Positions 5,220-54,088 of a stretch of 64,000 bases of DNA are shown here, in pieces. The stretch lies in the IMG/VR virus record IMGVR_UViG_3300030055_000003; one strand, 5' to 3'. How positions within the stretch are numbered: the stretch's first letter is position 1; each line of letters starts with the position of its first letter. The DNA comes from a virus (lineage: Duplodnaviria; Caudoviricetes). Under the pieces are notes generated by a model, which was given only the letters and a program-made list of their open reading frames with translations, had not been told where the DNA came from and did no database searches. Made by a program: the position numbers and the translations under genes.

Positions 5220-8200
5220 ATGAAAATCATAAAAGAACTAAAAGTTGGAGAAGGTATAAATATAATTCAAAGAGAAGGTAAGGACTTTGTATTATCAAAG
5301 AAAAGTGGTTATAGAACAATGTTTACAGATAAAAAAGAAAAAGAGCATAGAAAAAACATATGGAATGCAACTATGGATTGGTGTTTTGATTCAGTAAAAA
5401 TGAATGAAATAAAAATTAACAAAGATATGTCCAAGCCTTTTTATATGATTGATGGTAAACAATATTCAGACGCTATAATAAGCGTAAAATTTAAATGTGC
5501 AATAAAAGAATCAGAAGAAATAAATGGATTTAATGAACAATTACTAGGATTAAGTAAAACGAATAAAGAAATAGAATTAAAGTTAGTAGAACTTAGAAAA
5601 CAAGGAGTATCATTAAGACAATGTAAACATAAAGGAGAATATAAAACTAATCTTACACAGGAGCAACAATTATATATTGAATTATATAAAAGACAACAAA
5701 ATATTATTGAAGAAAAGAGAGATAAGGTAAAAAAACTAAAAGAGCAGAAAAAAAATGATATACAAAATACAGAACAAATCAGAAAAGAATTATACAAAAA
5801 TGGATTTGATATTATAGATAGTCAAGGTAAAAAATCTCATATGGTTAGATATAAACGTTCTAGTGGTTCTAGTAGAGTTGGAAAATGTTTATTTATTAGA
5901 GAAGATTTATATAAACCTATGATGGATTGGACTATGATGGACTTATGTATAAAAGATGGAGATGAAATTGATTTAGCTAGTTATGAAGCATATATAAGTT
6001 TAACATTAAGTTCTATGATAGATACTATTAATATAAAACCAGAAAATATATTAATACTTAAAGATGAAGAATCAAAAATAAGAGAAGAATGTATGGTTAC
6101 TGAACAAGTAATAGATAAGGATGGAAAAGCAGTATTATGCACAACAAAAAAATATACTGATGTAATTAATAAAATTTGGGATGGAGAAAGCTTGGCAGAT
6201 AGTAGTTTGTTTGGTGATAAATATAAGAATAAGGGAATGTTATTGTTAAGAAATCAAATGATAAAAACTTGTGCCTTTAACACAGAAATCCAAAAAAATT
6301 ATAAAGATTACAATATAACAATGGAAGATATAAAAAATAGTGAATATTATCTTTATACAAAAGCTAAAAAAGTTGAAGATATATTATTAATAACAACTCC
6401 GTCTAGTCTAAAATATTATAAATTCGGTTTAATTGAAAATTATTTAAATAATATGGATGAAAAATGGGGGATAGTTAAGTATGATAAACCAACACATTAT
6501 TTTGATGGAGAACTAGTTCAAACACATTATCAGTTGTTAAACTCTCTTAATTGCAATAAAAAAGATATCTCGGAAATATTAAAAGAAACAAAAGAATATG
6601 TTAGTTTATTAAAAAATGATATGGCTGTATTAAGAAAACATTTAAAAATGCAAATAGAACAAAATGAAGAATGCAAATTGTCAGATGAAGAGATTATGAA
6701 TAGAGAAATAGAAGGATTTTATAATGAAGATCATTTAAATATAAATAAAGATAATCATACAAAAGATATGATGTATACTCTATTAACATTAAATGATAAA
6801 ATTAAATTTACTACTGAATTTATTAATTTTCAGAAAGATGTTATAAGGGCATATAAAGATAATGCTAGACTAGGACATATTTTAATTCATGGTAATTATA
6901 GTGTATTATGTGGAAATGGAATAGAAATGTTAAAAGGTTCTTGTGGAAAATGGAACATTAAAGATGGTTCAATTATCAAAAAAGGAACAATATACTGCAA
7001 TAACTTTGAAGAAGTGAAACTTATAGGATCAAGGAGTCCTCACCCTTCTCCTAGTTGTATATTCGTTTCTAAAAACACTATATATAATGAAATAGATAAA
7101 TATTTTAATAGTAGTAAACAAATAGTACATATAAATGCAATAGAAGAGAATAACTTAGAAAAATTATCATCAGCAGATTATGATAGTGACCAAATGCTTC
7201 TTAGTGATAATGAAAAACTTATTGAAATTGCAGAAAGACATTCCAAAGATTATCCTGTATCAGTAAATTGTGTGATTGGAAAGAAGACTCCTAGATATTA
7301 TACTAATGAAGATAAATGTGATTTAGATGTGAAAACTAGCAAGAATTTTATAGGACAAATAATAAATCAAGCACAAATATTAGAAAGTCATTTAAATGAC
7401 ATTAGATTTAAAATAAAAAAAACAAAGGATAAAAGTATAAAACAAAAATTACAAGAACAGATAGATGATGTATTCATTGATATATCAACGTTAAATATAA
7501 TGTCTTGTATAGAAATAGATAAAGCAAAAAAAGAATTTGATATAGATAATGAATCTGAATTAAATAAAATAAAAGAAAAATATAATAATATTAAATTACC
7601 TAATTTCTTTAAATATACAGCAAAAAAAACATATCAAGATAAAAAAAACAAGATAAAAGAAAAGATATTAAAAAACACTCCATATGAAAAAATAGATAAA
7701 ATTAGTGATACGGATGATATTATTATCAAGAAGAAAGAAAACAATAAAGTAATTAAAGAGATAATAGATAAAGCAATTTCTTCTATGGAGAAGGAAAAAT
7801 ATCATCATTACGAAACAACAATGGATTATTTGGAAACGGAAATAGATAAATTTACATATAGAAAAATTGATAGACGAGTTGACAATAAAGATAATATTAC
7901 TAATATACTAGATTTATTAACTAATAAATATAAAGAAATATTAAAGCATATAAGTGATGCAGACAGAAAGCAGATAGATAGAATCATGGGTTTAATAATA
8001 GATAGCGATAAAAAAACTAGAGCATTATGGTGTAATACCAATTTAACAGGTGAAGATAAATATTTTAAAACTATCCAGTATAGAGTCGAATTAATAAATA
8101 AACTATCTACTTTTAAAATAAAGTTTGTAACTTTGATATCAATTTTAAAACAAATTAAGGAAGGAAAATATAGTAACATAGGAAGAGTTGCATTAAGTGT

Positions 8201-8339
8201 GCTATATTCTAGTCATAGAGAAATGTTCCTTGAAATGTTTAGGATTCAACAAGAAGAAATAGAAATACTATGTGATGGAGAAGATATAGAGTTATATGGA
8301 ATGTGCTTTGGGAAAAAGAAAACAACTAGGGATATTTAA
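5220..8339 (+). CDS. yonO: YonO-like single-subunit phage DNA-dependent RNA polymerase (RdRP/two-barrel fold)
   Basis: 1039 aa; RYKRSSGSSRVGKCLF, KIWDG, GSRSPH and catalytic-loop-like SSADYDSDQ (DxDxD) motifs; position ahead of HU and head genes matches SPbeta yonO-yonN synteny. Confidence 0.85.
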   Translation: MKIIKELKVGEGINIIQREGKDFVLSKKSGYRTMFTDKKEKEHRKNIWNATMDWCFDSVKMNEIKINKDMSKPFYMIDGKQYSDAIISVKFKCAIKESEEINGFNEQLLGLSKTNKEIELKLVELRKQGVSLRQCKHKGEYKTNLTQEQQLYIELYKRQQNIIEEKRDKVKKLKEQKKNDIQNTEQIRKELYKNGFDIIDSQGKKSHMVRYKRSSGSSRVGKCLFIREDLYKPMMDWTMMDLCIKDGDEIDLASYEAYISLTLSSMIDTINIKPENILILKDEESKIREECMVTEQVIDKDGKAVLCTTKKYTDVINKIWDGESLADSSLFGDKYKNKGMLLLRNQMIKTCAFNTEIQKNYKDYNITMEDIKNSEYYLYTKAKKVEDILLITTPSSLKYYKFGLIENYLNNMDEKWGIVKYDKPTHYFDGELVQTHYQLLNSLNCNKKDISEILKETKEYVSLLKNDMAVLRKHLKMQIEQNEECKLSDEEIMNREIEGFYNEDHLNINKDNHTKDMMYTLLTLNDKIKFTTEFINFQKDVIRAYKDNARLGHILIHGNYSVLCGNGIEMLKGSCGKWNIKDGSIIKKGTIYCNNFEEVKLIGSRSPHPSPSCIFVSKNTIYNEIDKYFNSSKQIVHINAIEENNLEKLSSADYDSDQMLLSDNEKLIEIAERHSKDYPVSVNCVIGKKTPRYYTNEDKCDLDVKTSKNFIGQIINQAQILESHLNDIRFKIKKTKDKSIKQKLQEQIDDVFIDISTLNIMSCIEIDKAKKEFDIDNESELNKIKEKYNNIKLPNFFKYTAKKTYQDKKNKIKEKILKNTPYEKIDKISDTDDIIIKKKENNKVIKEIIDKAISSMEKEKYHHYETTMDYLETEIDKFTYRKIDRRVDNKDNITNILDLLTNKYKEILKHISDADRKQIDRIMGLIIDSDKKTRALWCNTNLTGEDKYFKTIQYRVELINKLSTFKIKFVTLISILKQIKEGKYSNIGRVALSVLYSSHREMFLEMFRIQQEEIEILCDGEDIELYGMCFGKKKTTRDI

Positions 8340-9309: not shown

Positions 9310-10791
9310 ATGGGAGGAAAAAAGAATAAAGAAAATGAAATTGTAATAAGTCTAAATGGAAATCAAGCCGAAGAAGTAGTAGGCAGTAATTTAAGCATTT
9401 CATATTTATCAGATATAGGTAGAAAATGTGTTTTGGTCGAATTAGGAATGATACAAAATAACGATATGGCTGACGAATATATACTAAATAAGGAAATGTT
9501 AAATAATATTCCTATTAAAGAGTCAGATTATTGTTTTATGCTTCATTTACATTGTGATCATATTGGATTGTTTCCAGCATTATCTTCAATGGGATTTAAA
9601 GGTAGGATAATAACTACAAAGACTAATTCAATATTATCTAAACCAATGTTAAAAGATTGCATTAAAATTCATGTGAAAAATTGCGAGTATTTAAGAGAAA
9701 ATAAAGATAAATTTAAAAAGAAAATCAAAGGGAAAGTAAAAGAATTATTTGAAGAAAAAGATTTAGATAATGTAATGAGTATGATGGACGTTTATGAATT
9801 GGATAATATATATCATTTAGATGACTATTTGTCTTTTAGATTTACAAATAACTCACATATTATTGGTTCGACACAATTAGAAATTTTTATAAAGAAATTT
9901 GGAACAAATATTGTAAAAAAGATTTGTATTACAAGTGATTTAGGAAATACAGATAATTACTCATATACATATTTTACAGAACCAACAATTCCAGTATCTA
10001 ATTCAAATATTCTATTTATAGAAAGTACATATGGATTAGGAGATAGAAATTTCAACAAGAGAACTTGTATAGAAGAAAGAAAACAATTAGAAAAAGATAT
10101 ACTAGGATTTGTAAATTATAATCATTCGTGTATGATACCATGTTTTGCCTTATCTAGACTTAGTAATATGATGAGTTGGCTATATGATACGTTTAAAGAT
10201 AGATGGGATATGTCTAAACCAATTATAATAGCAACTAATCTAGGTAAAAAAATAAATGACAAAATGTATGAGGTTTTAGATAATGAAGATTTGGCTTATT
10301 GGGATGAAGTTATGACTTGGAAAGCTTTTAAATTTATAAATGATAATAAGAGTTGTGAAGCTTTTGTTAATTCTAAACCAAAAAGTTACCTAGTACTAAG
10401 TTCAAGTGGGATGATATCAGGAGGTTTTAGTAATCTATTTGTTAATCAAATGTTACAAGATTCTCATAATGGAATATTATTTTGTGGATATTGTTCTCCT
10501 AATACAATAGGTGGTCAATTATTAGATAATAGTACAGATACAGTTATTGTTGATGGTAGAACATTAAAAAAGAGATGTATTGTGAAAAGATACTATTCAT
10601 TCAGTAGCCACGCATCACAAAAAGATATTGTAAACTATATTAAGCAGTGTGATTGTCAAAAAGTAGTATTGCAACATGGAAGTAGTGACGCAAAAGAAGA
10701 ATTAAAGAAATTATCTGAAATAGAATTGAGCAAAATGAACAGGACAACAAAAGTTATTTCATCATATAAGGATATGCAAATAACTTTGTAA
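9310..10791 (+). CDS. Metallo-beta-lactamase-fold hydrolase, beta-CASP (RNA-processing) family
   Basis: HLHCDHIG (HxHxDH), SHIIGS, TSDLG, ESTYG, IPCFALSR, SSGMISGG, FSSHA, LQHG motifs in canonical order. Confidence 0.85.
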   Translation: MGGKKNKENEIVISLNGNQAEEVVGSNLSISYLSDIGRKCVLVELGMIQNNDMADEYILNKEMLNNIPIKESDYCFMLHLHCDHIGLFPALSSMGFKGRIITTKTNSILSKPMLKDCIKIHVKNCEYLRENKDKFKKKIKGKVKELFEEKDLDNVMSMMDVYELDNIYHLDDYLSFRFTNNSHIIGSTQLEIFIKKFGTNIVKKICITSDLGNTDNYSYTYFTEPTIPVSNSNILFIESTYGLGDRNFNKRTCIEERKQLEKDILGFVNYNHSCMIPCFALSRLSNMMSWLYDTFKDRWDMSKPIIIATNLGKKINDKMYEVLDNEDLAYWDEVMTWKAFKFINDNKSCEAFVNSKPKSYLVLSSSGMISGGFSNLFVNQMLQDSHNGILFCGYCSPNTIGGQLLDNSTDTVIVDGRTLKKRCIVKRYYSFSSHASQKDIVNYIKQCDCQKVVLQHGSSDAKEELKKLSEIELSKMNRTTKVISSYKDMQITL

Positions 10792-11338: not shown

Positions 11339-12135
11339 ATTAACGAGAACCTTATAGATGTTACAGAGAAGTCGTGAGAAATATCTATAACCTTGTAATA
11401 TTTTATATTTATCTATGGGTTTAAATAATATATGAGGACTAACACTCATTCCCCAGAGTAATTTTCAGTTACTCGGTACTCCTTGAGGGGACGTTAAAAT
11501 AATATTCAAGGCAAGGTTAGAAAACAGGCTCACTAGCTGAGGAAATTATAATGATTAATTCGGTCACACCCCTGTATAAAAAATAATAGTGAACGCTTAC
11601 CATTAGTCCGATAGGGACGTTAAATCTATTTTTATTTAGATGTTATCGTAGCATGCCAAAAACGGAATAGATAACAAGTGTATCTATTAAGCAATAAAGT
11701 AAATGTCGTTTCAAGATTAGGTATTTAACTTTGCTTTATAATGGTTTTATGTTTACCAAAACTTGAATAGGATTGATAATCTGAAAGAAAACATATGATA
11801 CAAAACGCTGGTCAATATGCGTTTAATAAATGGTTGATTGGATTGAATAGATGGAGACGTTTTAGTTGTACCATCGAGACTAATTAGTCACTCTAGATTA
11901 ATTAGATGTTGAAGATAGGCTTTACGCCAGTGATTAGGGAGTTGACATAGGTAATTCTTCCGTAGATATATGTAATAGTCTATATTAAAAACCTACTATC
12001 AGAAAATTTCTAAGACAGGATTAAGGAAATGCGATAGCTATTCGTTAACTGGAAAAGCTTCCGATTATATGATACTCGAAGTACAAGAGTATTACCCTAT
12101 AGAATTAGTGGACATAACCATACGGATAGGGATTT
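11339..12135 (+). ncRNA. Candidate large structured non-coding RNA (ROOL/GOLLD-scale; family not assigned)
   Basis: No long ORF in either strand over 1.17 kb, visibly more G/C than flanking intergenic DNA, and a dense series of helices (11352-59/11383-90, 11456-61/11469-74, 11666-73/11681-88, 11803-08/11819-24, 11850-54/11871-75, 12071-77/12087-93, 12095-100/12126-31). Confidence 0.6.
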
Positions 12136-17245: not shown

Positions 17246-17375
17246 GTAAATTGGATTATTTGACTAAGTAGATTTAGGTTTACTTAGTTGTTTTTTGATA
17301 TTTATATGTTATTTATTTTAATGGAACTTATTTTTTTGGTAAGTTGCTAAAGATAAATAAATTAAAATTAAAATA

Positions 17376-17527
17376 TTGACAGTGAATACTCTATGGAGTA
17401 TAATTGTGATATAGGATAGATAAGAAAGTCATGAGTCTTATTAATAAGTGAGTGTTCCGAAACTCATTTCCTATATTCTAAATAATAAATCGGAATAAAT
17501 TAAATGCAATCGGAGGTAATAAATATT
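17376..17527 (+). promoter_or_regulatory. sigmaA promoter plus hairpin/pseudoknot leader of HNH gene
   Basis: TTGACA 17376-81, 17 bp, TATAAT 17399-404; stem aagtgagt/actcattt with loop gttccgaa; loop complements tcggaa 17490-95 and tcggag 17510-15 (RBS). Confidence 0.65.
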
Positions 17528-18489
17528 ATGGGGAAAGGTCAATTTTGGACAATAGAAGATGAAGAATTTTTAAAAGAAAATTACATATATTTATCGAAAG
17601 AAGAATTAATGAATAAATTTAATAATAGGACTTGGAAGGGAATAAGACATAAGGCTAATGATATGGGAGTTAAAAAACAAAACGACTATGAAAATATTTC
17701 AAACGATGAATTATATAAAATAGAAGGTGGAATAAAATATAAATTATGTAAGTGTTGTAGAAGATATTTACCTTTGGAATTAAAATATTTTCCAAAAGAC
17801 AATACGTGTACAGATGGGTTTAGAAATATTTGCAAGGAATGTAAAGGTGAGAACTTTGAGATTTCAAATGCGATTGATTGGACAGATAAAGATGTGGAGT
17901 TATTAAAAAAGTTTATTCCAATATGATAAATGAAGATATTATTAAAGAATATTTTCCAAATAGAAAAATAAAACATCTAACAGATAAATCTTCGAAATTA
18001 GGATTAAAGAAAAATAAAGAGACTTTTAATAGATGTAGAATTATGAGTTGTGAGGGCAGAATTAAGATATCTAATATTAGAAAAATAGATGGAATTTTTA
18101 AAGGAAGAAATAATCCAATGTATGAATCTAAAAGATATGGTAATCTTAATCCTAATTGGCAAGGTGGGATTACTTCAGAAAAAAGCAGAATAATGAATAC
18201 TGAGGAATATAAAAATTGGAGAAAACAAGTTTTTGAAAGAGATAATTATACTTGTCAATGTTGTGGTGAGAAAACACATAATAATGAAGCTCATCACATA
18301 GATAATTTTGCAGACTATGAAGATAAAAGATTTGATGTTGAAAATGGAATGACTTTATGTAAGCAATGTCATAATCCAAATCAAGAAGGAAGTTTTCATA
18401 ATACTTACGGAACGTTGCACAATAATAAAGAACAGTTAGAAGAATATATTGAAAGTAAAACAGATAAAGATTTAAAAGTCGCTAATTAA
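17528..18489 (+). CDS. HNH homing-endonuclease-like gene split by a -1 frameshift at A_AAA_AAG (17905-17911)
   Basis: Two ORFs (17504-17926, 17923-18489) join in the -1 frame to complete a second WTxxDxExLKxxY Myb-like repeat; C-terminal RDNYTCQCCG...EAHHI...NGMTLCKQCH HNH domain. Confidence 0.75.
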
Positions 18490-18504
18490 TTTAGTGGCTT
18501 TTTT
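18475..18504 (+). terminator. Rho-independent terminator after HNH gene
   Basis: aaagtcgctaa/ttagtggcttt stem plus T run. Confidence 0.65.
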
Positions 18505-24666: not shown

Positions 24667-24756
24667 GTTAAAACTAAGAGGTTTGAGATATAGCTTCTTT
24701 TTTATTGTAAAAAATAATATTAAAAAATTAAAATTATGAAAGCGAGGAAATAAATT

Positions 24757-25218
24757 ATGTTAAGAAATTTACAAACAAACGGAAATGGTGCAAGTAATGG
24801 TCAAAATAAAGCTTCAGTTGATATGGTAAGGGGGTCTTTTGTTACTGCTGATGAAGCAACAAAAACATTAGCACTTGCAACAGGTATCGCAGGCGTTAAA
24901 ATCGTAGATAGAGGAACTAAATTAACAGTATCAGTTGCACAAAATTTTGCAATATCACCTTATGACGCCGATCAAGATACAATTTTAGCTGGTGAAAGAG
25001 GATATTTAAATGATTTAGAAGGTAGATGGGCAACATCAATGTACGATTCAACAGTAAATTCAGTATTGGCAATTGGTAGTTATTTAACTATAACTGCTGG
25101 TAAATTAGTAGCTTCACCTTTAAATGCAGTTACAATAATTAAATTTCTAGGATTAATTCCAGATAACGGACATACATTAGCTGGATTTGAAATAGATGCT
25201 ACAGTAAAATTAGCTTAA
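24757..25218 (+). CDS. Putative head decoration protein (YonC-like)
   Basis: 153 aa, G/A/V/T-rich, directly before capsid gene. Confidence 0.5.
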   Translation: MLRNLQTNGNGASNGQNKASVDMVRGSFVTADEATKTLALATGIAGVKIVDRGTKLTVSVAQNFAISPYDADQDTILAGERGYLNDLEGRWATSMYDSTVNSVLAIGSYLTITAGKLVASPLNAVTIIKFLGLIPDNGHTLAGFEIDATVKLA

Positions 25219-25273
25219 TAAATTAAAAACAATATTAACAAAAATAAATTAAAATTATGAAAGCGAGGAAATA

Positions 25274-26269
25274 ATGATGAATATAGAATTAAGTAATCAC
25301 GTAAAAGAAAGAGGTACTATGTATGAATGGGCAGAAAAAGTAGTAGGGAAAAAGGAACTTTCACCAGACCAAATTATAATTTCCGAATCAATGAATAAGT
25401 GGGCATTAGAAATTGCAAATAGTGGAACAACTAATGTAGCATTATCTGATTATCTACAAAGAGTTGTTCAAGAACAAATTTATGATGAACCATCACAATT
25501 ATTAGATACAATGTTTAATCAAGGTTCAATTGGAGAATTTGATGATTATAATTCAATCGGAACTTATAAAAATAATCTATTAGCACATGAAGTTTCTGAA
25601 AGAGGCGGTTCTGTTGATAAGTCTTATGTAGATTTCAGTAGATATTCAATGGTACATACAAACTTACAAATAGAAACTGAATTAAGATATGATGAACTAA
25701 GAAGAAATGGTGCTATGACAATTGCACAATTAACTCTTTATGCAATTGAATCATTACAAAATAAAAAGTTCCAATCAATATTTACTAACCTTAATACATT
25801 GTTAGTATCAGGTTCAAATGTATTTGATGCAACTGGTGGATTAACAGTTCAATTAATGGATGATTTTGCAGGTTATGTAACAGACCATTCATTTACAGGT
25901 CAACAATTAATTACTGGTTTGTCAACTGATTTAAGAGATATCAAGAATATGCCAGGATATACAGACTTCTTATCTTATACTATGAAGGATGCTTTAAACA
26001 TGGGTTCTGGTGTACTTAGTGTATATAACAGTGTTCCATTAGCTTCTATTTCTGCTGGTAAATTACTTGCAGATGGAAGCACTTTAATTCCAGCAAAAAC
26101 AATCTATGGTTTCTCAGACAAAATTGGTCAATGTGATATGAGAGGATCTTTAAGAGTCCTACAAACTCCAGACAATGCTAAAGAAGTAATCAGATTGAAA
26201 TTTACTGGATATGAATTCATTTATGCAATAGATAAATTAGAAAAAGTTTCAAAAATTAAAGTAAAATAA
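25274..26269 (+). CDS. Major capsid protein (YonB-like)
   Basis: 331 aa, position after scaffold/decoration, followed by terminator; HK97-like size and composition. Confidence 0.75.
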   Translation: MMNIELSNHVKERGTMYEWAEKVVGKKELSPDQIIISESMNKWALEIANSGTTNVALSDYLQRVVQEQIYDEPSQLLDTMFNQGSIGEFDDYNSIGTYKNNLLAHEVSERGGSVDKSYVDFSRYSMVHTNLQIETELRYDELRRNGAMTIAQLTLYAIESLQNKKFQSIFTNLNTLLVSGSNVFDATGGLTVQLMDDFAGYVTDHSFTGQQLITGLSTDLRDIKNMPGYTDFLSYTMKDALNMGSGVLSVYNSVPLASISAGKLLADGSTLIPAKTIYGFSDKIGQCDMRGSLRVLQTPDNAKEVIRLKFTGYEFIYAIDKLEKVSKIKVK

Positions 26270-28777: not shown

Positions 28778-28865
28778 AATTGTATGTTAATTATAAAGAC
28801 ATTAGGATTATTTCTAGTGTCTTTACATTAGTATATAAATAAATTAATGTAAATTAAAAAAGATA

Positions 28866-29019
28866 TTGACAATCTTTGTTAAAGATGTTAATATAAATTT
28901 AGGAAGATTACTTAGTATAAGGTTCGAAACTTATACTAAGGACAGGGTTTTTCATGTGCCTTTCTTTCTTTTATAAAATACACATGAAAATAAATTATAA
29001 CATGAAGGAGATAATACAT
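28866..29019 (+). promoter_or_regulatory. sigmaA promoter plus hairpin/pseudoknot leader of endonuclease gene
   Basis: TTGACA 28866-71, 17 bp, TAATAT 28889-94; ttttcatgtg 28949-58 complements cacatgaaaa 28981-90 and acatgaa 29000-06 abutting GGAG RBS. Confidence 0.6.
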
Positions 29020-30651
29020 ATGAATGAAAAGGAATATTTAGAATTTATTAAACAGTGGAAAGAAGAGAATAAGGAATTAATTAAAAGTGGTAAGTGTAGA
29101 AAAACTTTTTTAGAATGTTTACCTAGGAAGTATGGAGTCGGTGGAAATAAAAATAAATTAGTTATTGATTGGATAAATTCAATTGGATATAATGTGTATT
29201 TTATATACGAAAATATTATAGGGTGGATTGAAATTATTAGTTATAAAAAAGATAAAAGAATATTAAAAGTAAAATACAACAAATTTGAATCAGAGATAAA
29301 TACTAATCAAATGTCAAACTGTAATATAGGAAGAATTATAGGAAAAATCACATCAGAATTCAAAATAGAAATTGGACAAACTTTTAAAGATAACAAAAGA
29401 GATATAACTGTAACTGATAAAGAAATTAGAATTAGATATAAAAAAGATGGTTCTTTGTGCAATGATAAATGGTACAAATACACTTGTAACGTTTGTAGTT
29501 GGAATGAAGGGTGGATGACAGAAGGAGATTTATTAAGAAAAGAAAAACGAGGATGTTCATGTTGTTCTGGGAAAACACTTATAGAAGGTATTAATGATGT
29601 AGCTACAATATCACCTTGTATAGTTAAATATTTTCAAGATGGTTATGATGAGGCTAAGAAGTATACAAAATGGGGAAGTGGAAACCCTGATAATCCAAAA
29701 GGTTATATCTATCCTATCTGTCCTGATTGTGGAAGAGTTAAAAAAAAGAAAACTAATATTGGTTATATTTACAAATCACATTCAATAGGGTGTTCTTGTA
29801 GTGATAATATTTCAAAAGGGGAAAAATATGTTTTTAGTTTATTAGAACAAATAGGTATAAAATTTATAACTCAATTATCAAAAAGAGAACAATCGTGGTG
29901 TAATAATTATAGATATGATTTTTATTTTCAGTTAGGTAATAAAGAAAATTATATAATAGAAGTAAATGGACAACAACATTACGAAGAAAATACTAATTTT
30001 GAAATGAATTTGGATGAACAGGTAGAGAATGATAAAAACAAAAAAGAACTAGCATTAAAAAATGACACAAAAGAAGAAAACTATATTATTATTGATTACA
30101 GAAAAGCTGATTTAAATTTGCTAAGAAAAAATATATTGAATGATAAAATATTAAATGAATTATTTGATTTAAGTAAAATTAATTGGATAAAATGCTATGA
30201 ATTTGCTTTGTCTAACTTAGTAAAAAAAGCTTGTGAACTTAAAAAACAAAATCCTAAGATGACTACTACTGAAATAGGTAAATTAATGGGAGGATATTGT
30301 AGGCTTTCAATTCAAAAATGGTTAGAATCTGGTAATGAATTGGGCTGGTGTCACTATAATAAAAATGAAGAAATAAATCAAAATTATAAAAACAGTGTAA
30401 TAAGAAATAAGAAAAATTATTCAAAACCAGTAGAAATATTTAAAGATGGAATTAGTCTAGGTTTATTCCCCTCAGCTAGTGAATTAGAAAGACAAAGCAT
30501 AGAACTTTTTAAAGTAAAATTAATTAGAAGTAATATTACTTTAGTCTGCCAAGAAAAACAAAAGCATCATAAAGGTTATGAATTTAATTATTTAACACAA
30601 GAAGAATATGATAGAAGGAAAAATGAAGAAAATTTAAAACAAGCAATATAA
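29020..30651 (+). CDS. Free-standing zinc-ribbon + PD-(D/E)xK (EDxHD/Vsr-like) putative homing endonuclease, copy 1
   Basis: CNVC, CSCC, CPDC motifs; RYDFYF...IIEVNGQQHY catalytic-like motif; C-terminal NUMOD1-like segment; paralog of 37877 and 51422 genes. Confidence 0.7.
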   Translation: MNEKEYLEFIKQWKEENKELIKSGKCRKTFLECLPRKYGVGGNKNKLVIDWINSIGYNVYFIYENIIGWIEIISYKKDKRILKVKYNKFESEINTNQMSNCNIGRIIGKITSEFKIEIGQTFKDNKRDITVTDKEIRIRYKKDGSLCNDKWYKYTCNVCSWNEGWMTEGDLLRKEKRGCSCCSGKTLIEGINDVATISPCIVKYFQDGYDEAKKYTKWGSGNPDNPKGYIYPICPDCGRVKKKKTNIGYIYKSHSIGCSCSDNISKGEKYVFSLLEQIGIKFITQLSKREQSWCNNYRYDFYFQLGNKENYIIEVNGQQHYEENTNFEMNLDEQVENDKNKKELALKNDTKEENYIIIDYRKADLNLLRKNILNDKILNELFDLSKINWIKCYEFALSNLVKKACELKKQNPKMTTTEIGKLMGGYCRLSIQKWLESGNELGWCHYNKNEEINQNYKNSVIRNKKNYSKPVEIFKDGISLGLFPSASELERQSIELFKVKLIRSNITLVCQEKQKHHKGYEFNYLTQEEYDRRKNEENLKQAI

Positions 30652-30657
30652 TAAGTG

Positions 30658-30684
30658 AGACATCTTTATATAAGGTGTCTTTTT
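30658..30684 (+). terminator. Rho-independent terminator
   Basis: agacatctt/aaggtgtct stem plus T run. Confidence 0.65.
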
Positions 30685-30720
30685 GTTATGTAAAAATAAA
30701 ATATAGAAAGAAGTGATGAT

Positions 30721-30882
30721 ATGAAATTAGGTGTATTAACGTCTTCTTATAAAATAAGGGGATATAACAATAATAAATTAATAGAAAAAACAGTTAATAA
30801 AAGTACAATTTTATGGGGTTTTATAGGCGTGAAAATTGAAGTATTCGATAGTATGAGAGAGTATTTGGGAGGTGATGGTTAG
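30721..30882 (+). CDS. Small hypothetical protein (53 aa; not in ORF track)
   Basis: ATG 30721 to TAG 30880-82, purine-rich RBS. Confidence 0.4.
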   Translation: MKLGVLTSSYKIRGYNNNKLIEKTVNKSTILWGFIGVKIEVFDSMREYLGGDG

Positions 30883-35631: not shown

Positions 35632-35660
35632 AAGACTAGAATTTATTTTCTAGTCTTTTT
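35632..35660. terminator. Bidirectional terminator between convergent genes
   Basis: aagactaga/tctagtctt stem with flanking A and T runs. Confidence 0.7.
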
Positions 35661-36477
35661 GCTTAGTAGTGGATTTATTTTTAGAAATTTCATTGAAAAA
35701 ATAAACAGAAGCATTTGATATAACTTGCAAGTCATTATCACTTAAATCTAATAATCCACCATGCGCATATATATTTCTTAATCTTGTTAAAAATCCAAGA
35801 AGTTCAGAAGAATTAGATTGCGAAGAAAGAATATTATAAATTAAGCGATACGATGGTATTAATTTAAATGTTATATTAAATTCTTCCATACTATAAATAT
35901 AATATTTATCAATTTCATTTTTATATTTTTCATAGATTGATGGTTCACAATTTAAAACTATGTTATTTAATATTGAATTAAGATTAGATTCAATATTAAA
36001 TTCCAAATCTAATTTAGATTGCATTTCTTCCATTTCAAGAATTTCTTTATCTGATTGAATTGGATTATAACCATTTTGTTCTTCAAATATTTCATTTTCT
36101 TTTATTTCTTTACGACCTAAAAGAAAGCCTGATTTATGTTCTTCTTTAAGTATATTAACCATTTTTAAAGTATATTGATTTAATAATGGTTTTTTATTAT
36201 ATTCGTGTCCAACCGCATCAGTATTACTAATATCCATCCAGTTTCCAATTTCAGAAGGTGGAAACATCTTTTGTTGAACTGGTTCTAATTCTAATAAATC
36301 ATTAGGAGTACACCTAAAGAGGTCACATAGCAAATCAATATGTCCTTTATCAATTTTTTCAAAGGTATTATTTACATATTTGCTAATAGTATTTTTATTG
36401 ATTCCAGTATAATCAGATACATCTTTTTGATTATATCGGCTATCTTTTAATAGTTTATCTAACTTCATTTTAGCCAT
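35650..36477 (-). CDS. Cro/C1-type HTH regulator with long C-terminal domain
   Basis: QKDVSDYTGINKNTISKYVNN...LCDLFRCTPNDLL; AGAGGTGAG RBS. Confidence 0.8.
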   Translation of the reverse strand: MAKMKLDKLLKDSRYNQKDVSDYTGINKNTISKYVNNTFEKIDKGHIDLLCDLFRCTPNDLLELEPVQQKMFPPSEIGNWMDISNTDAVGHEYNKKPLLNQYTLKMVNILKEEHKSGFLLGRKEIKENEIFEEQNGYNPIQSDKEILEMEEMQSKLDLEFNIESNLNSILNNIVLNCEPSIYEKYKNEIDKYYIYSMEEFNITFKLIPSYRLIYNILSSQSNSSELLGFLTRLRNIYAHGGLLDLSDNDLQVISNASVYFFNEISKNKSTTKQKD

Positions 36478-37461: not shown

Positions 37462-37744
37462 AAAAACACCTCCTTTATAAAGTATTTTATTTTGGAAACA
37501 ATAATATTTCTAATGTAAAATACTTTAAAGAAGATGGCAAAGAGTTATGAATGGATACAATATTCTATATTAATTTAGATATAATGTTTTATTTTAAATA
37601 GGTTTAGTTTCATTTTCATAACATTTCATTTTTTCCCTTTATCTATTTTAATATAGTATGTTTATTATACCATAAAATTGGAAAACTGTAAAATTAGATA
37701 TAAAATTTTAGGATTGATTATAAATTACTTGAAAAAGTGTTATA

Positions 37745-37876
37745 ATATAGATATGGAAGGATAGATATATGAAGGGTTGCAAACTGGATTATATTGATAA
37801 GTGAATTTCGACCTCACTTCCTTTCTATTTTTATAAAATGGTCGAATAAATTAAATTATGAAAGGTCGAGATTGTA
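37745..37876 (+). promoter_or_regulatory. Hairpin/pseudoknot leader of endonuclease gene
   Basis: Extended -10 TGTTATAAT just upstream; stem aagtga/tcactt, loop atttcgacc; complements ggtcgaa 37840-46 and ggtcgag 37864-70. Confidence 0.65.
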
Positions 37877-39427
37877 ATGGAGGATAATAAACAACTAAAT
37901 CAAGAAGAATATATGGAGATTATTGAAAAATTTAAAAAAGAAAATAAAGAAGATTATGAAAAGGGTAAGATTAGAAAGGTATTTGATGAAAATCTTATAT
38001 ATAGTAAAAGTGGAAGAACTATTCATTGGAATGCTAGTATAGGTTATCAAGTATATTTTATACATGAAAATATAGAAGGATGGCTTAAAATAATTAATTA
38101 TGATGTAAAAACAAGAAAATTAACAATAGATTATAATAATGAATTGTTTTATATATTTTATGGAGATTTTTGCAAAGGTGGATTGTGTGCTATTTTGGGA
38201 ATTGTTACAGTAGATTTCAAAATAGAAATAGGACAAACATTTAAAGATGATAAAAGAGATTTAACTATTATTAATAGAGAATATAGAAAAGAAGAACATA
38301 TTGATAAAAAAGGTAGAAAAAGTATAGTGAATTTAAAATACTACACATATAAGTGTAATAAATGTGGGCACAAAGGATTGTCATTAGAAGGGTCATTATT
38401 ACGACAAAAGACAGGCTGTGCATGTTGTAATTCATCTAATAGAACTGTTGTATTGGGGATTAATACAATATATGATACTGATAAATGGATGATTCCATAT
38501 ATAGGTGAAGAATGTGCCAAAACTCATACTCATGGTAGCAATAAAAAAGTTGAAGTAACTTGTCCCGATTGTGGAAGAATTAAAAACAAACCTATGACAA
38601 TAGGTAATATTTATAAACGACATTCAATAGGATGTCATTATTGTTCTGATTCTGTAAGTTATCCAAATAAATTTGCATATGAACTATTAAATCAATTAAA
38701 TAAAATATATAAATTTATTTATTTTCAACATGAATATTCACCATCTTGGCTAGGTCAAAGAAGATTTGATAATTATTTTATATATAATGATAAAGAATAC
38801 ATAATAGAGATGGACGGAGGATTAGGTCATGGTAAAGGAAATTATAAAAATAACATGACATCTGAAGAATCTAAAGCTATTGATGATGAAAAAGATAGAT
38901 TAGCTAAAGAACACAATATTGAAGTAATCAGAATAGATTGTGAAATAAGTAGTTTGGATTATATTAAAAAACATATATTAGAAAGTAATTTAAATAAATT
39001 ATTTGATTTAAGCAAAATAAATTGGCTAAAAGTCGAAGAATTTGCATTATCTAATTTAGTTAAAGAAGCTTGTAATTTATGGGATAGTGGTATTCATGAT
39101 ACTTTGAAAATTGCTGAGATAATGAAATTATCGAGACCTACAATTACAACATATCTCAAAAAAGGTTCAAAGGAAGTATCTTGGTGTGAATATAACCCTA
39201 ATGAAGAAAGTAAAAAAGGTACTATTCAATGCAAACAAGTTAATAAAAAACCTTTAGAAGTATTTAAAGATAATATTTCTAAAGGAATATTTGAATCTGC
39301 TAGTGAATTAATAATAATAAGTGAAAAGTTATTCGGAGTTAAATTTGATTTTAGAAAAATATCATTAGTTTGTCTAGGAAAACAAAAGAAACATAAAGGA
39401 TATACATTTAAATATATAATGAATTGA
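37877..39427 (+). CDS. Free-standing zinc-ribbon + PD-(D/E)xK putative homing endonuclease, copy 2
   Basis: CNKC, CACC, CPDC; RRFDNYF...IIEMDGGLGH; C-terminal NUMOD1-like segment. Confidence 0.7.
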   Translation: MEDNKQLNQEEYMEIIEKFKKENKEDYEKGKIRKVFDENLIYSKSGRTIHWNASIGYQVYFIHENIEGWLKIINYDVKTRKLTIDYNNELFYIFYGDFCKGGLCAILGIVTVDFKIEIGQTFKDDKRDLTIINREYRKEEHIDKKGRKSIVNLKYYTYKCNKCGHKGLSLEGSLLRQKTGCACCNSSNRTVVLGINTIYDTDKWMIPYIGEECAKTHTHGSNKKVEVTCPDCGRIKNKPMTIGNIYKRHSIGCHYCSDSVSYPNKFAYELLNQLNKIYKFIYFQHEYSPSWLGQRRFDNYFIYNDKEYIIEMDGGLGHGKGNYKNNMTSEESKAIDDEKDRLAKEHNIEVIRIDCEISSLDYIKKHILESNLNKLFDLSKINWLKVEEFALSNLVKEACNLWDSGIHDTLKIAEIMKLSRPTITTYLKKGSKEVSWCEYNPNEESKKGTIQCKQVNKKPLEVFKDNISKGIFESASELIIISEKLFGVKFDFRKISLVCLGKQKKHKGYTFKYIMN

Positions 39428-41706: not shown

Positions 41707-41853
41707 TTTACAATGATATAATAAAAAGGTATTATTATATTAGAAACTAGATAAGGAGTAATTAACCATATTGAAAAGGAGTATCCGAACTCCCTGTTTC
41801 TATTTTTATAAATTCGGAAATAAATTAAAATACATATCGGAGGTATTATAGTA
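41707..41853 (+). promoter_or_regulatory. Intron-internal promoter and hairpin/pseudoknot leader of GIY-YIG gene
   Basis: TTTACA-17-TATTAT (41707-35); stem ggagt/actcc, loop atccga; complements tcggaa 41814-19 and tcggag 41837-42 (RBS). Confidence 0.6.
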
Positions 41854-42891
41854 ATGAAAGTAGGAAACTTAGAAGTATATGGTATTATATATAAAATAAT
41901 AAATAAGTTAAACAATAAGATATATATTGGACAAACAGCTAGAGATTTTAATAAAAGATATTTTTATACAGGAGAAACAAAATTAGAAAGAGTTTATAAT
42001 CTGCATAAAAATATAAAAGAAAAGAATAATGGATATTATAATAGACACTTATTAGAGTCTATGGAAAAATACAGTTTAAATAATTTTGAATTGGTTGAAG
42101 TCTTTGATATAGCTTTTTCAAAAGAAGAACTAAATATTAAAGAACAATGTTGGATTAACGTTTACGATAGTTATCATAATGGATATAATCAAAATTTAGG
42201 CGGAGATGGGAATTATGGAGTTGAACGGAAAAAAGGAAAAGATAATCCAAGTTCTAAAGCTGTGGTTCAATTAAATAAAAAAGGAAAATATATAAAAACG
42301 TGGGATTGTATGGCTGATGCTGAAAGAGAATTACAGATTGCCATAGGATGTATAAGTGGAGTATGCATTGGTTTATGTGATAAAAATGGATACATAAGAA
42401 AATCAATAGGTGGTTTTATGTGGAAATTTTTAGACGATTATAATAAAGAAGAATCAATTATATATGATAATAAGGTAGGAGAGTATAATAAAAAACCTAT
42501 AGTTCAACTAGGTTTAAATGGGGATTTTATAAAAGAATATAATTCCATATCTGACGCTTGCAAAGAAACAGAAGGTTCTATAACATCTAAAATATCTAAT
42601 TGTTGTCAAAATAAAAGAAAATCTCATAATGGTTATATATGGATATATAAAAGAGATTATAATAAAGATAATAATTATAATTATAATGTAAAAAATAGTG
42701 GGAAAAATAAACCAGTAATTCAACTATCAAAAGATAATATTTTTATTAAAGAATATAATAGTATGTCTGATGCAAGTAAAGAATTAAATTTAAATATATC
42801 AAAAATATCTAATTGTTGTAATAATAAAAGAAAAACACATGGAAATTATATATGGTTATTTAAAGAAAACTATCAAGCTATAATAAAATAA
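41854..42891 (+). CDS. Intron-encoded GIY-YIG homing endonuclease with three NUMOD1 repeats
   Basis: GIIYKI...KIYIGQT...R; GYNQNLGG; three KPVxQL..xG.FIKEYxSxxDAxxEL...ISxCCxxKRKxHxGYxW repeats. Confidence 0.9.
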   Translation: MKVGNLEVYGIIYKIINKLNNKIYIGQTARDFNKRYFYTGETKLERVYNLHKNIKEKNNGYYNRHLLESMEKYSLNNFELVEVFDIAFSKEELNIKEQCWINVYDSYHNGYNQNLGGDGNYGVERKKGKDNPSSKAVVQLNKKGKYIKTWDCMADAERELQIAIGCISGVCIGLCDKNGYIRKSIGGFMWKFLDDYNKEESIIYDNKVGEYNKKPIVQLGLNGDFIKEYNSISDACKETEGSITSKISNCCQNKRKSHNGYIWIYKRDYNKDNNYNYNVKNSGKNKPVIQLSKDNIFIKEYNSMSDASKELNLNISKISNCCNNKRKTHGNYIWLFKENYQAIIK

Positions 42892-50431: not shown

Positions 50432-50458
50432 TTAAGATTAGTATATATAGTTTAATTT

Positions 50459-50487
50459 AAGACTTAGATTTATTTCTAGGTCTTTTT
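50459..50487. terminator. Bidirectional terminator
   Basis: aagacttaga/tctaggtctt stem plus T run. Confidence 0.65.
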
Positions 50488-50510
50488 ATTATGTAAGATT
50501 AGAATAAAAT

Positions 50511-50741
50511 CTAATCTTCAAGTTTAATTCTATGAATTTTAACTTTCTTTCGTTCAACTAAATCATTAATTTCACAATCAAAGAATTCGCATAAAATTTC
50601 TAAATGTTCTTTATTGATCATTTTAAAAGTATTATTTACATAATCACTAATAGTTCCTTGACGTATACCAGTTTGACGGCTTAATTCTCTTTGACCTATA
50701 TTATGTTGTTCCATTATTTCTTTTAGTTTTAAATGTATCAT
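50511..50741 (-). CDS. Cro/C1-type HTH regulator (76 aa)
   Basis: QRELSRQTGIRQGTISDYVNN...LCEFFDCEINDLVE; GAGGTG RBS. Confidence 0.85.
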   Translation of the reverse strand: MIHLKLKEIMEQHNIGQRELSRQTGIRQGTISDYVNNTFKMINKEHLEILCEFFDCEINDLVERKKVKIHRIKLED

Positions 50742-50780
50742 ATCATCACCTCAATTATATTATACCATAAAATTTAAAAA

Positions 50781-50869
50781 TGATACGAAAAAAGTTTCAA
50801 AAAAGTATTGACACGAAAATTGTATCAATGTATAGTATAAATATACCAAGTGATACGAAATATGTATCA
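50781..50869. promoter_or_regulatory. Three TGATAC-N7-GTATCA operators overlapping a sigmaA promoter
   Basis: 50781-99 (TGATAC/GTTTCA), 50809-27 (TGACAC/GTATCA), 50851-69 (TGATAC/GTATCA); TTGACA 50808-13, TATAGT 50831-36. Confidence 0.75.
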
Positions 50870-50894
50870 AATAAAACTTGAGGAGAGTGTTATT

Positions 50895-51257
50895 ATGGAA
50901 ACAATTATTAATAATGATTATGAAAGCAACCTACCACAAAGAACCATAGAATATTTAGGGTTCTTAAATTTCTTACAAGAACAAAGAGATTGGGATAATG
51001 ATTTAGTAATTATAAGTGGTGAAGAGTGGGATAAGTTTTATGATCCTACTACAGATGATGAATATGAAATGAAACTAGATATAGTTAATGTCAAAGACTT
51101 CTTTAATAAATTTGCAGAGATAACTAAAACAGACCAATGGAAATTTGAGAATTATTTTGTTAGTAGTAAATACATAGATGAATGGACGTATAATACAATG
51201 AATTTAATAGTTAAAGTTGATGGATTGAATCAAAGATTTATTATTGATTGCGTTTAA
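50895..51257 (+). CDS. Acidic hypothetical protein, paralog of 36724-37212
   Basis: GAGGAG RBS before ATG 50895; EWDKFY, FAEIT, YIDE, RFII. Confidence 0.65.
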   Translation: METIINNDYESNLPQRTIEYLGFLNFLQEQRDWDNDLVIISGEEWDKFYDPTTDDEYEMKLDIVNVKDFFNKFAEITKTDQWKFENYFVSSKYIDEWTYNTMNLIVKVDGLNQRFIIDCV

Positions 51258-51292
51258 TTAATGGTTATATCGTAGAAATACTTTATAATATA

Positions 51293-51421
51293 TAGGAGTA
51301 GAGAATAGATATTAGTAGATAGTCGACGATTTGTTAATATTGATAAGTAACAACTTCTAAGTTACTTTTTCTACTTTATTTAATTATTAGGAGAAATATA
51401 ATTAAAATGGAGGAATTAGTT
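51293..51421 (+). promoter_or_regulatory. Hairpin/pseudoknot leader of endonuclease gene
   Basis: Stem aagtaac/gttactt, loop aacttctaa; ttaggag 51387-93 pairs with loop (one G-U); GGAGG RBS 51409-13. Confidence 0.5.
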
Positions 51422-53050
51422 ATGGAACAATTAAATGAGAAAGAATATTTAGAGTATATTGAGAAGTGGAAGCTAGAACATGAAAATAAGATTAAAAGTG
51501 GTAAATGCAGACATATATTTTTAGAGTGTTTACCTAAATTAAAAAATAATAACAGTAAAATAATAAATTGGCAAAAAAGTCCTAAATATGTTATATTTTT
51601 TATATATGATAATATCGAAGGCAATATTGAAATTATAGAATATAATAAAAATACGAGAAATTTGTTATTACAGTATAATAGTAAAAAAAATAAATTATAC
51701 ACTCATGATTTATTAAATTGTTATATCGAAGGAATAATAGGAAGAAGAATATCAAATTTTAAATTAGAAATAGGGGCTCATATTCGGGATATAAAAAGAA
51801 ATTTAACTATTACAGATAAAGAATATAGACCTACTTATAATGATAATGGTAACTTAAGACAAAACGTAAAATGGTATAAATATACTTGTAATAAGTGTGG
51901 ATGGACTGAAGGTTGGGTGAGAGAAGGTTCATTATTAGGAGAAAAAACAGGTTGTGGATGTTGTTGCAAAAATAATAAGACTTTAGTTGAAGGAATAAAT
52001 GATATTCCTTCAACTGCACCTTGGATGATACCATATTTTCAAGGTGGATATGAAGAAGCTAAATTGTATACTCATAGTAGTAATGAAAAGATTTTCCCCA
52101 TATGTCCTGATTGTGGGAGGATTAAAGATAAAAAGATGACGATTTCTAAAATTTATAATAGACATTCTATTGGATGCTCTTGCTGTGACAAAATTCCTTA
52201 TCCAGAAAAATTTGTATTTTCAATTTTAGAACAGTTAGATTTGGATTTTCAAATACAACTATCCAAATCGACTTTTATATGGTGTAATAAATATAAATAT
52301 GATTTTTATTTTAAGTTAAATAATGAACTATATGTAATAGAAACGCATGGAATTCAACACTATGAAGATTCAAGTGGAGTTTTTACAAAGTCAATTAAAG
52401 AAGAGCAAGAAAATGATAGATTAAAGAAAGAATTAGCTTTATCTAATGGAATTAAAGAAGAAAACTATATAGTGATTGATTGTAGATATAGCACATTGGA
52501 GTGGATTAGAGATAACGACAATGGAATGTTAAATAGTAGATTAAATGAATTGTTCGATTTAAGTAAAGTTGATTGGCTAAAATGTGCCGAATTTTCTTGC
52601 TCAAATTTAGTAAAAATAGCATGTAAATTAAAAAGAGATACTCCTAATTTAACAACAACCGAAATAGGTGAAATAATGAAGTTAGAAGGACAAACTATAA
52701 GAAAATACCTAAAACAAGGTTCTGAGATATGGAATTGGATTAATTATAATGCAAAAGAAGAAATAATGAGAAATGGAAAACGATGTAGTTTAAATTCAGC
52801 TTTAAATCCAATAATAATGTTCAAAAATCAAAAATATATATATTTGTTCAAATCAGGACGTTCATTAGAAAGACAGTCGGAAAAATTATTTGAAACTAAA
52901 TTATGGCAAGCTAATATATCAGCAGTATGTCGTGGTAAAAAGCCACAATACAAAGGATATACTTTTAAATATGTTCAAGACCTAACTTCAGAAGAAAGAA
53001 TTAAATATGATATAGAAAATAAACTTAAAGAATTAGAAAAATCAGCTTGA
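51422..53050 (+). CDS. Free-standing zinc-ribbon + PD-(D/E)xK putative homing endonuclease, copy 3
   Basis: CNKC, CGCC, CPDC; KYDFYF...VIETHGIQHY; C-terminal NUMOD1-like segment. Confidence 0.7.
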   Translation: MEQLNEKEYLEYIEKWKLEHENKIKSGKCRHIFLECLPKLKNNNSKIINWQKSPKYVIFFIYDNIEGNIEIIEYNKNTRNLLLQYNSKKNKLYTHDLLNCYIEGIIGRRISNFKLEIGAHIRDIKRNLTITDKEYRPTYNDNGNLRQNVKWYKYTCNKCGWTEGWVREGSLLGEKTGCGCCCKNNKTLVEGINDIPSTAPWMIPYFQGGYEEAKLYTHSSNEKIFPICPDCGRIKDKKMTISKIYNRHSIGCSCCDKIPYPEKFVFSILEQLDLDFQIQLSKSTFIWCNKYKYDFYFKLNNELYVIETHGIQHYEDSSGVFTKSIKEEQENDRLKKELALSNGIKEENYIVIDCRYSTLEWIRDNDNGMLNSRLNELFDLSKVDWLKCAEFSCSNLVKIACKLKRDTPNLTTTEIGEIMKLEGQTIRKYLKQGSEIWNWINYNAKEEIMRNGKRCSLNSALNPIIMFKNQKYIYLFKSGRSLERQSEKLFETKLWQANISAVCRGKKPQYKGYTFKYVQDLTSEERIKYDIENKLKELEKSA

Positions 53051-53396
53051 AAACTATTTAATATAATCCTATTAAAAGCTTTAAATTATATAATCAATCA
53101 TTTTTATAAAATATAATAAGAATATTATCGTATAATTTGTAGAAATATGTTAAAATATAGATATAAACAGATTGATAATTATAAATTGATTTATTATTGT
53201 CAAAACTTTACTAATATTTATATTTTAACATATATAAGATTGTGGTAAAATTAAAAGGTAATAATTTACAATATAACTATTAAGTTGGTTTAATTGGAAT
53301 AAAATTCTTGTAATATTATGTTAAGGGGTGTATTATATGGTTATAAAGAGATATATAAAAAACGTAAGTATATTAAATAAAGATGGGGGTGTTAGT

Positions 53397-53570
53397 ATGG
53401 AAAATGTCATTTCTATGGATAAATATATTGAAGATACACAATCGAATGAATGTGAATGGGATATAATTAGAAATATATGTCAAAAGGCTATACAAAGAAA
53501 AGGATATACATCACAACAGGTTCATGAAATTTCAAAGAAGATATTAAGAGAGGTACGTGAAGACAAATGA
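53397..53570 (+). CDS. Small protein, putative antitoxin of PIN toxin
   Basis: 57 aa, GGGGGTG RBS, stop overlaps PIN start (ATGA). Confidence 0.45.
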   Translation: MENVISMDKYIEDTQSNECEWDIIRNICQKAIQRKGYTSQQVHEISKKILREVREDK

Positions 53571-54043: not shown

Positions 54044-54070
54044 AGAGTTTAGTACAAGCTAGGCTCTTTT
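54042..54070 (+). terminator. Terminator after PIN gene
   Basis: aaagagtttag/ctaggctcttt. Confidence 0.65.
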
Positions 54071-54088
54071 ATTATGAAAAAATAATAG

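Follow-up and report, generated by a model that had tools for sequence, protein, structure and literature searches.

A conserved family of folded leader RNAs ahead of homing-endonuclease genes in phages of Bacillota

The window, which is the entire 64,000 nt stretch of Caudoviricetes DNA analysed here (IMG/VR record IMGVR_UViG_3300030055_000003), occurs in peat metagenome DNA sequencing runs. Five leaders were found in it, all on the + strand and each ending at the start codon of an ORF of endonuclease type. Leader 4 precedes a gene (41854-42891, +) that is GIY-YIG by both Pfam and PHROGs, and leaders 2, 3 and 5 precede genes (29020-30651, 37877-39427 and 51422-53050, all +) assigned to phrog_4538/9084, 'homing endonuclease'. 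The initial annotation had labelled the latter three PD-(D/E)xK; a Pfam search with the 500-aa nuclease returned no match, and a PDB profile search matched only its C-terminal I-HmuI-like DNA-binding segment. The gene at 17528, behind leader 1, had been described as HNH in the initial annotation. An HNH gene is indeed located behind this leader, but the ORF that begins at 17528 is a 132-aa HTH/Zn-finger ORF, and the clear HNH endonuclease (188 aa) is encoded by the next ORF (17923-18489), which overlaps it by ATGA. This two-gene unit (17528-18489) is directly upstream of the terminase genes (18541 and 19434), and a terminator is found near its end, at 18474-18502.

Leader 1 (17407-17530, +; extent from model matches) is preceded by a sigmaA-type promoter, TTGACA-17-TATAAT (17376-17404, +), that matches the consensus at 12 of 12 positions and is the sole perfect match in 13.8 kb. 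The first helix, P1 (17411-17416/17469-17474), begins 7 nt past the -10 hexamer and is followed by P2 (17419-17442) and P3 (17448-17467). The apical loop of P2 contains the palindrome UCAUGA (17429-17434, +). The P3 loop (17454-17461, +), a putative anti-RBS, is complementary to box 1 (17490-17496, +), a putative decoy, and to box 2 (17510-17516, +), which overlaps the Shine-Dalgarno (SD) sequence GGAGG; the predicted energies of the two duplexes are -8.5 and -7.6 kcal/mol, respectively.

The remaining leaders, all in + orientation, are built in the same way. Leader 2 (28899-29022) follows a TTGACA-17-TAATAT sigmaA-type promoter with a TG (28866-28894) and includes P1 (28901-28907/28963-28969), P2 (28911-28940; palindrome UUCGAA, 28923-28928) and a P3 loop (28948-28958) that is predicted to pair with box 1 over 10 bp (28981-28990; -10.3 kcal/mol) and with box 2, which includes the SD (29000-29010; -9.6 kcal/mol). 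Leader 3 (37752-37879) has an extended -10 promoter, TGnTATAAT (37738-37746, read from the sequence), P1 (37755-37761/37819-37825), P2 (37764-37795; palindrome UUGCAA, 37777-37782) and a P3 loop (37805-37813) with predicted pairing to box 1 (37840-37846; -9.8 kcal/mol) and to a box 2 that extends to 3 nt before the AUG (37863-37873; -11.4 kcal/mol). In leader 4 (41738-41856), a sigmaA-type promoter matching 10 of 12 consensus positions (41707-41735) precedes P1 (41741-41747/41796-41802), P2 (41750-41772; palindrome UAAUUA, 41759-41764), the P3 loop (41783-41788), box 1 (41813-41819) and box 2 (41836-41843). Upstream of leader 5 (51296-51424) a -10 hexamer can be read from the sequence (51284-51289), and the leader comprises P1 (51298-51305/51367-51374), P2 (51308-51341; palindrome GUCGAC, 51322-51327), the P3 loop (51352-51360), box 1 (51387-51393) and a weak box 2 (51407-51413). 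The initial annotation had placed leaders at these five positions and named the fifth as having the poorest second copy; all five are present, the latter judgement agrees with ours, and coordinates of loops and boxes re-derived by script confirm the box positions (17490/17510, 28981/29000, 37840/37863, 41813/41836 and 51387/51407).

A covariance model, R1, was built from leader 3 alone (37752-37879), whose minimum-free-energy fold supplied the three helices, and was run against both strands of the entire window plus two loci. The top five matches other than leader 3 itself were the four other window leaders (at 41738, 28899, 17407 and 51296) and one IMG/VR leader, with E-values, which are rough for such models, of 2e-5 to 4e-3. 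The next match had an E-value of 0.27. As R1 retrieves only these as best matches, we conclude that the window contains exactly five copies. A hand-written descriptor composed of the hairpin, the loop complement, ATAAATTA, the second complement and P1 gave scores of 55-72 for four of the window leaders, and the maximum in 60 Markov shuffles (3.8 Mb in total) was 59.

Rfam 15 holds no family that explains the leader. At gathering thresholds, the only match in the window was a drum RNA (RF02958; 55.9 bits vs a gathering threshold of 43) at 11689-11799 (+), in a long non-coding stretch before late genes. A permissive scan of 17300-17560 produced only a chance-level match to tsr33 upstream (E 0.76; 22.6 bits vs a gathering threshold of 109). 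Self-cleaving ribozyme classes were rejected, with no Rfam match even at E 10, as was a conserved upstream ORF, because in-frame or overlapping AUGs are present in some leaders only.

The leader was traced outside the window via homologues of the 500-aa nuclease, which led to IMG/VR contigs, one of them with the same leader. Model searches of whole records found four leaders in contig G001, one each in G002 and G006, and three in G007, and nineteen additional matches in ten more contigs were reached via a fixed 23-nt word of the P2 arm. With identical copies removed, the leaders of metagenomic phages number 26, a set in which the UCAUGA class is inflated as the harvest was partly seeded with the UCAUGA arm. 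When one leader was used as a blastn query, matches to Bacillus phage vB_BanS-Thrax2, Bacillus phage KoopaTroopa and Sporosarcina phage Lietuvens were returned, all in the gap immediately before an annotated nuclease gene. The final model, R3, found one leader in each of these (E 2e-7, 3e-6 and 1e-3 across the three). In the two Bacillus phages, which are related (L301, ON548418.1, 18478-18597; L304, PP965177.1, 18718-18821), the same promoter and leader follow a PhoH2/YlaK gene. At least 28 distinct leaders are now available, five from the window and 23 more from soil, Bacillus and Sporosarcina phages, the latter spread over 14 IMG/VR phage contigs and the three cultured phages.

Other searches added little. 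Queries of cultured phages with two other leader types (blastn) returned only chance-level matches, and 5 kb of the window (megablast) returned none. MT835469.1 contains only a marginal match to the leader model. Protein-pattern scans of genome contigs found no relative, and an alignment-based scan of viral contigs found only one contig, which had been found previously. Two gapped DNA patterns were used on viral contigs: the first gave no true leader, as judged by the descriptor, among the matches listed, and the second gave one, as judged by the model, among the 116 loci listed. As a negative control, 1.0 Mb of AT-rich viral DNA preselected for three leader-like words yielded one model match, and that was a true leader. 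Judged from sequence, the folded leader RNA of approximately 110 nt is a previously undescribed family that has no match in Rfam 15.

The ORFs downstream of the leaders are of endonuclease type in all cases scanned except L295, where function is unassigned, and they fall into at least five PHROG groupings: phrog_4538/9084/559, GIY-YIG phrog_314/7168, phrog_12131/5104, phrog_18411 and HNH/endonuclease VII-like. In Thrax2 and KoopaTroopa the promoter and leader are virtually identical and occupy the same genomic site, and the gene that follows is HNH in the former and GIY-YIG in the latter, which bears out the portability between nuclease families that had been proposed from the window alone. 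Clostridium phage BG3P lacks the leader though it encodes a 42%-identical homologue of the nuclease. As the same leader accompanies different nucleases and a related nuclease occurs without it, the leader is an independent module.

Comparison with contig G006 revealed that 28778-30881 (+), comprising promoter, leader 2, nuclease gene and a terminator (30657-30681), is an insertion; in G006, the flanking genes are neighbours with 76 nt between them. G006 also lacks the block 50432-54669. This pattern indicates that the leaders belong to self-contained mobile transcription units. Minus-strand genes for HTH regulators (35650-36477, phrog_2967, and 50511-50741) are located upstream of two of the nuclease cassettes. 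We conclude that the leader RNA belongs to free-standing homing-endonuclease cassettes of Bacillota phages.

The predicted fold is a three-way junction of P1, P2 and P3 in the first approximately 70 nt. A sigmaA-type promoter is found ahead of most leaders, with a TGn-extended -10 also in several relatives, and P1 starts 5-9 nt after the -10 hexamer. As P1 lies just past the -10, the predicted transcript start is at the foot of the fold, and P1 begins within a few nt of this start in at least 20 of 26 leaders. In model-fitted alignments of 24 distinct leaders, which lean towards structure, 96.9% of helix cells are paired and 18 of 18 modelled pairs change on both sides; when partners are slid by 1-3 columns, 42-52% of cells pair, so the gap to the controls is large. 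None of 500 shuffles reached any of five helix measures. The analysis was also run on 13 sequences, and MAFFT alignments, which were structurally inconsistent, were dropped and replaced by the model-based ones. P1 invariably combines a purine-rich 5' strand with a pyrimidine-rich 3' strand, and G-U pairs occur in P1 and in pairings of the loop with box 2. Together, the G-U pairs and the fixed strand polarity of P1 argue for pairing at the RNA rather than the DNA level. The junction nucleotides UAGAUA and GA(N)AAG are conserved.

Two direct repeats further downstream both complement the P3 loop, which has 6-14 nt. Box 1 is 10-20 nt past P1. Between the end of box 2 and the AUG there are 0-11 nt, and in most leaders this box contains the GGAG or GGA of the SD, so that the second complement does overlap the ribosome-binding site, as had been claimed. 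The best and second-best complementarity scores of loops with their own boxes are 18.0 and 15.1, vs 11.4 and 8.8 in unrelated leaders, and none of 10000 permutations (the test was also run on a 14-leader set) reached the observed best or second-best sums. Thus, the loop and both of its complements co-vary. Counted conservatively, the loop/box words fall into at least 11 unrelated classes, among them UCGGA, AUUGGAG, GGUCGA, CAUGAA, CUAGGA, GUAAGGA, GGUUAAC, GAUUGA, GAGUUGG and GAAAGGG. The predicted energies of the loop with box 1 and with box 2 differ by no more than 1.6 kcal/mol in 11 of 14 leaders, and such near-equal pairing is what a two-state switch would need. Box 2 pairs over just 5 bp in the leaders GIY, L133 and L263 and poorly at 51407-51413; in L299 it does not cover the SD but is located after it, ahead of the AUG. 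Minimum-free-energy folds contain no common local hairpin that includes the SD. As the SD partner is the P3 loop, 45-70 nt upstream, the interaction would be a pseudoknot.

Model matches, helix covariation and loop/box complementarity thus uphold the view that the leader is a conserved structured RNA with a loop able to form a pseudoknot; covariation and the spread over at least 17 phage records rule out chance or mere duplication as its origin. The hairpin and loop complements described in the initial annotation are there. It overlooked the palindromic loop of the P2 hairpin, and that its inner hairpin is part of a three-way junction at the extreme 5' end of the predicted sigmaA transcript.

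An 'A(A)TAAATTA-like sequence' between the two complements had also been taken for an element of the leader. This is not supported, as the sequence is a strand-biased motif found genome-wide at gene starts, including those of ordinary genes. The + strand of the window has 62 copies of ATAAATTA and the - strand 8, with approximately 40 expected in total, and 27 of the 62 plus-strand copies fall in the non-coding 14% of the window. Copies are located upstream of ordinary genes, at 11-27 nt from the start codon (e.g. for the genes at 10824, 12459, 16949, 25274, 33604, 34284, 55625 and 60916), and an extended 16-mer form, AAATAAATTAATAGAA, is present in ten copies. The motif AAATAAATTAA(T/A)A is approximately 5-fold enriched in non-coding DNA (e.g. 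at 804, 2120, 8371, 10792, 16916, 25244, 33585, 55590 and 60895), and two adjacent late genes (24730-24757 and 25244-25276) have a repeated 5' UTR, aaattatgaaagcgaggaa, beside copies of ATAAATTA. The same motif is placed in the same way at gene starts in contig G006. We conclude that ATAAATTA is a signal that marks gene starts throughout the lineage and that it probably serves as a phage promoter or else as a site of processing.

In most peat-phage leaders, ATAAATTA sits between box 1 and box 2. It is missing from the leaders of Thrax2, KoopaTroopa and Lietuvens and from L285, L288 and L264. In these leaders the distance between the boxes is 5 nt (Thrax2 and KoopaTroopa), 7 nt (Lietuvens, L285 and L288) or, with other sequence in between, 31 nt (L264). 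As the two-box design persists without the motif, an internal promoter cannot be the reason for having two boxes, and a T4-like late promoter inside the inhibitory structure could do no more than add a layer in a single lineage. Two genes of the window may bear on how the motif is used. The 1039-aa protein encoded at 5220-8339 (+; phrog_8308, no Pfam match) has a DYDSD motif at residue 653 and is possibly a YonO-like single-chain RNA polymerase; it has relatives with 77-90% identity in IMG/VR and metagenome contigs and a 34%-identical one in MT835469.1. A beta-CASP/RMMBL protein (RNase J/CPSF-like), a possible RNA-processing enzyme, is encoded at 9310-10791 (+).

A perfect 6-nt palindrome is present in the apical loop of P2 (7-10 nt) in 26 of the 28 leaders; among comparable hairpin loops in the window, 6.8% hold such a palindrome. 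Seven different palindromes were found (UCAUGA, UAAUUA, UUGCAA, GUCGAC, UUCGAA, UCGCGA and UGAUCA), mostly bordered by unpaired purines, and GTCGAC occurs just once in the 64 kb window, in leader 5. As positions 2 and 5, and 3 and 4, of a hexamer cannot pair within one molecule, their covariation implies that two molecules pair with each other or that a symmetric site is recognised. All palindromes differ within the window (5/5), G001 (4/4) and G007 (3/3). Strict orthogonality within one genome is ruled out, because UCAUGA occurs twice in G013. Predicted homodimers of extended P2 gain -9.8 kcal/mol, vs -6.0 kcal/mol for loop-shuffled controls, and the UAAUUA class is very weak as a predicted dimer (-0.4 kcal/mol). 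The two leaders that lack the palindrome are L299 and L288. In L288 (1501-1615, IMG/VR contig G012) the P2 loop, GUUGUGA, repeats box 2 and complements the P3 loop, and a kiss between the P2 and P3 loops of one molecule is therefore possible. The palindrome otherwise suggests, on the modelled fold, that the RNA may form homodimers.

We lean towards the reading that the leader is a cis-acting translational switch in which, on the modelled structure, the P3 loop would alternate between the decoy (on) and the RBS (off). Transcription would start at the foot of P1 from the cassette's own host-type (sigmaA) promoter, and the P3 loop would act as an anti-RBS that forms a pseudoknot with one box at a time. 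With the loop on box 2, the ribosome-binding site would be masked and translation off; with the loop on box 1, the site would be free and translation on. That control would be translational, and its direction, we infer from the fold, the covariation and the position of box 2. With so little predicted difference in energy between the pairings, a small input could be enough to tip the leader from one to the other, and in this way the leader would determine how much nuclease is made or when. Candidate triggers are dimerisation through P2, a protein or small ligand bound at the conserved junction and, in one lineage, loss of the 5' domain where the gene-start motif is located. In the lineage with ATAAATTA, transcription or processing at the motif may also give shorter RNAs without the anti-RBS loop, which would be a late escape of the T4 kind. 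Phage homing endonucleases are known to be translationally silenced through the RBS, and the switch fits the biological need documented for those of T4 (PMC2988022). Against a switch, near-equal energies give no predicted default state, and mRNA stabilisation alone would likewise require P1-P3.

Stabilisation as the sole function would mean that the 5'-terminal junction, compact and locked by the pseudoknot of loop and tail, blocks 5'-dependent decay by RNase J or RNase Y and that complementarity to the RBS is secondary. Bacillus mRNAs can be stabilised by 5'-terminal stem-loops, and P1 is close to the predicted transcription start in most of the leaders, as above. The connectivity is also, by analogy, that of flavivirus xrRNAs, which have a three-way junction with the P3 loop paired to sequence 3' of P1. 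However, stabilisation accounts neither for the covariation of the loop with the RBS copy, box 2, which is as tight as that with box 1, nor for the restriction of the leader to endonuclease genes, and we consider it unlikely. Temporal control of the T4 type and nothing more, in which long transcripts, early or read-through, would have their RBS silenced by the leader and ATAAATTA would yield late, short, translatable ones, strikes us as no less improbable. It would draw on a T4 precedent (PMC2988022), on the lineage-wide and strand-biased placement of the motif before ordinary genes in the window and G006, on its position exactly between the boxes in most peat-phage leaders, and on the candidate phage RNA polymerase and beta-CASP RNase encoded nearby. 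It leaves box 1 without a role, and the two boxes persist in the five leaders (Thrax2, KoopaTroopa, Lietuvens, L285 and L288) that have them 5-7 nt apart and no motif.

A DNA operator is very unlikely. Here, the loop and boxes would be three copies of a site (one inverted, two direct) bound by a protein, for instance the nuclease in autorepression; T4 intron endonucleases such as I-TevI do autorepress at operators that overlap their own promoters (PMC2988022), and in some leaders the boxes flank a promoter-like motif. The sites are, however, downstream of the sigmaA promoter, and the stems that flank them, P3 and P1, show covariation, G-U pairs and a strand polarity that does not change. The same word also precedes different nuclease families, and the same family follows different words.

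It is possible, though doubtful, that the switch is coupled to dose, with the leader a concentration-sensing mRNA whose copies kiss through the P2 palindrome, so that translation of the nuclease is capped or timed. In a monomer the P3 loop would sit on the nearby decoy, and in a dimer each P3 loop would reach the RBS box of its partner or its own; nuclease output would then be capped or timed by the number of transcripts and phage genome copies. Dimerisation would account for palindromes that vary yet stay palindromic and differ within a genome, and for the retention of both boxes.

RBS-sequestering hairpins have been described for I-TevI, I-TevII, I-TevIII, segB and Aeh1 mobE (PMC2988022). 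As in those cases, a cis-acting RNA structure would occlude the SD of a selfish endonuclease gene and restrict a potentially harmful nuclease, and part of the leader family has a promoter-like signal inside the regulatory region. However, the T4 elements are simple local hairpins that are mutually non-homologous, whereas the leaders form one conserved family and do not enclose the SD in a stable local hairpin. The three-way junction, long-range pseudoknot, decoy copy and palindromic loop, the cassette's own host-type promoter and the Gram-positive hosts also set the leader apart. Translational riboswitch platforms such as SAM-II and preQ1 share the mutually exclusive pairing of SD, anti-SD and SD mimic and a pseudoknot at the RBS. 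Unlike them, the leader has no evident conserved ligand pocket and no Rfam match, its pairing words vary freely, and its partners are mobile nucleases rather than metabolic genes.

The P2 loop resembles the HIV-1 DIS and other kissing-loop homodimers in having a self-complementary 6-nt sequence, usually flanked by purines, in an apical loop of 7-10 nt, and in the predicted loops the palindrome varies between members and stays palindromic. The putative homodimer differs from that of the DIS in its context, a phage mRNA leader, and in that most palindromes are AU-rich. Natural RNA homodimers have been stressed as rare (PMC7357161, PMC12990946). With the flavivirus xrRNA, the leader shares, by analogy, the three-way junction and the pseudoknot of P3 loop and 3' tail, but its tail offers the loop a choice of two partners, with the RBS as one of them.

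Among the selfish genes of phages, those for homing endonucleases are the most common. To our knowledge, the means by which they are kept harmless have been known only from a few unrelated hairpins of T4-like phages. The leader described here is one conserved RNA family with a defined fold that accompanies nucleases of at least five families in widely differing phages of Gram-positive bacteria, and cultured Bacillus phages carry it, which allows direct testing. It can serve as a marker for free-standing endonuclease cassettes in metagenomes and could be a compact, tunable part for synthetic biology in Bacillota. No RNA described in Rfam combines a self-complementary loop and an anti-RBS loop with a covarying decoy and the RBS. 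The leader could add a new type of translational switch, possibly a rare natural RNA homodimer. If dimerisation is real, it would be a natural mRNA of a bacterial virus that is regulated by homodimerisation, which would be considerably more unusual.
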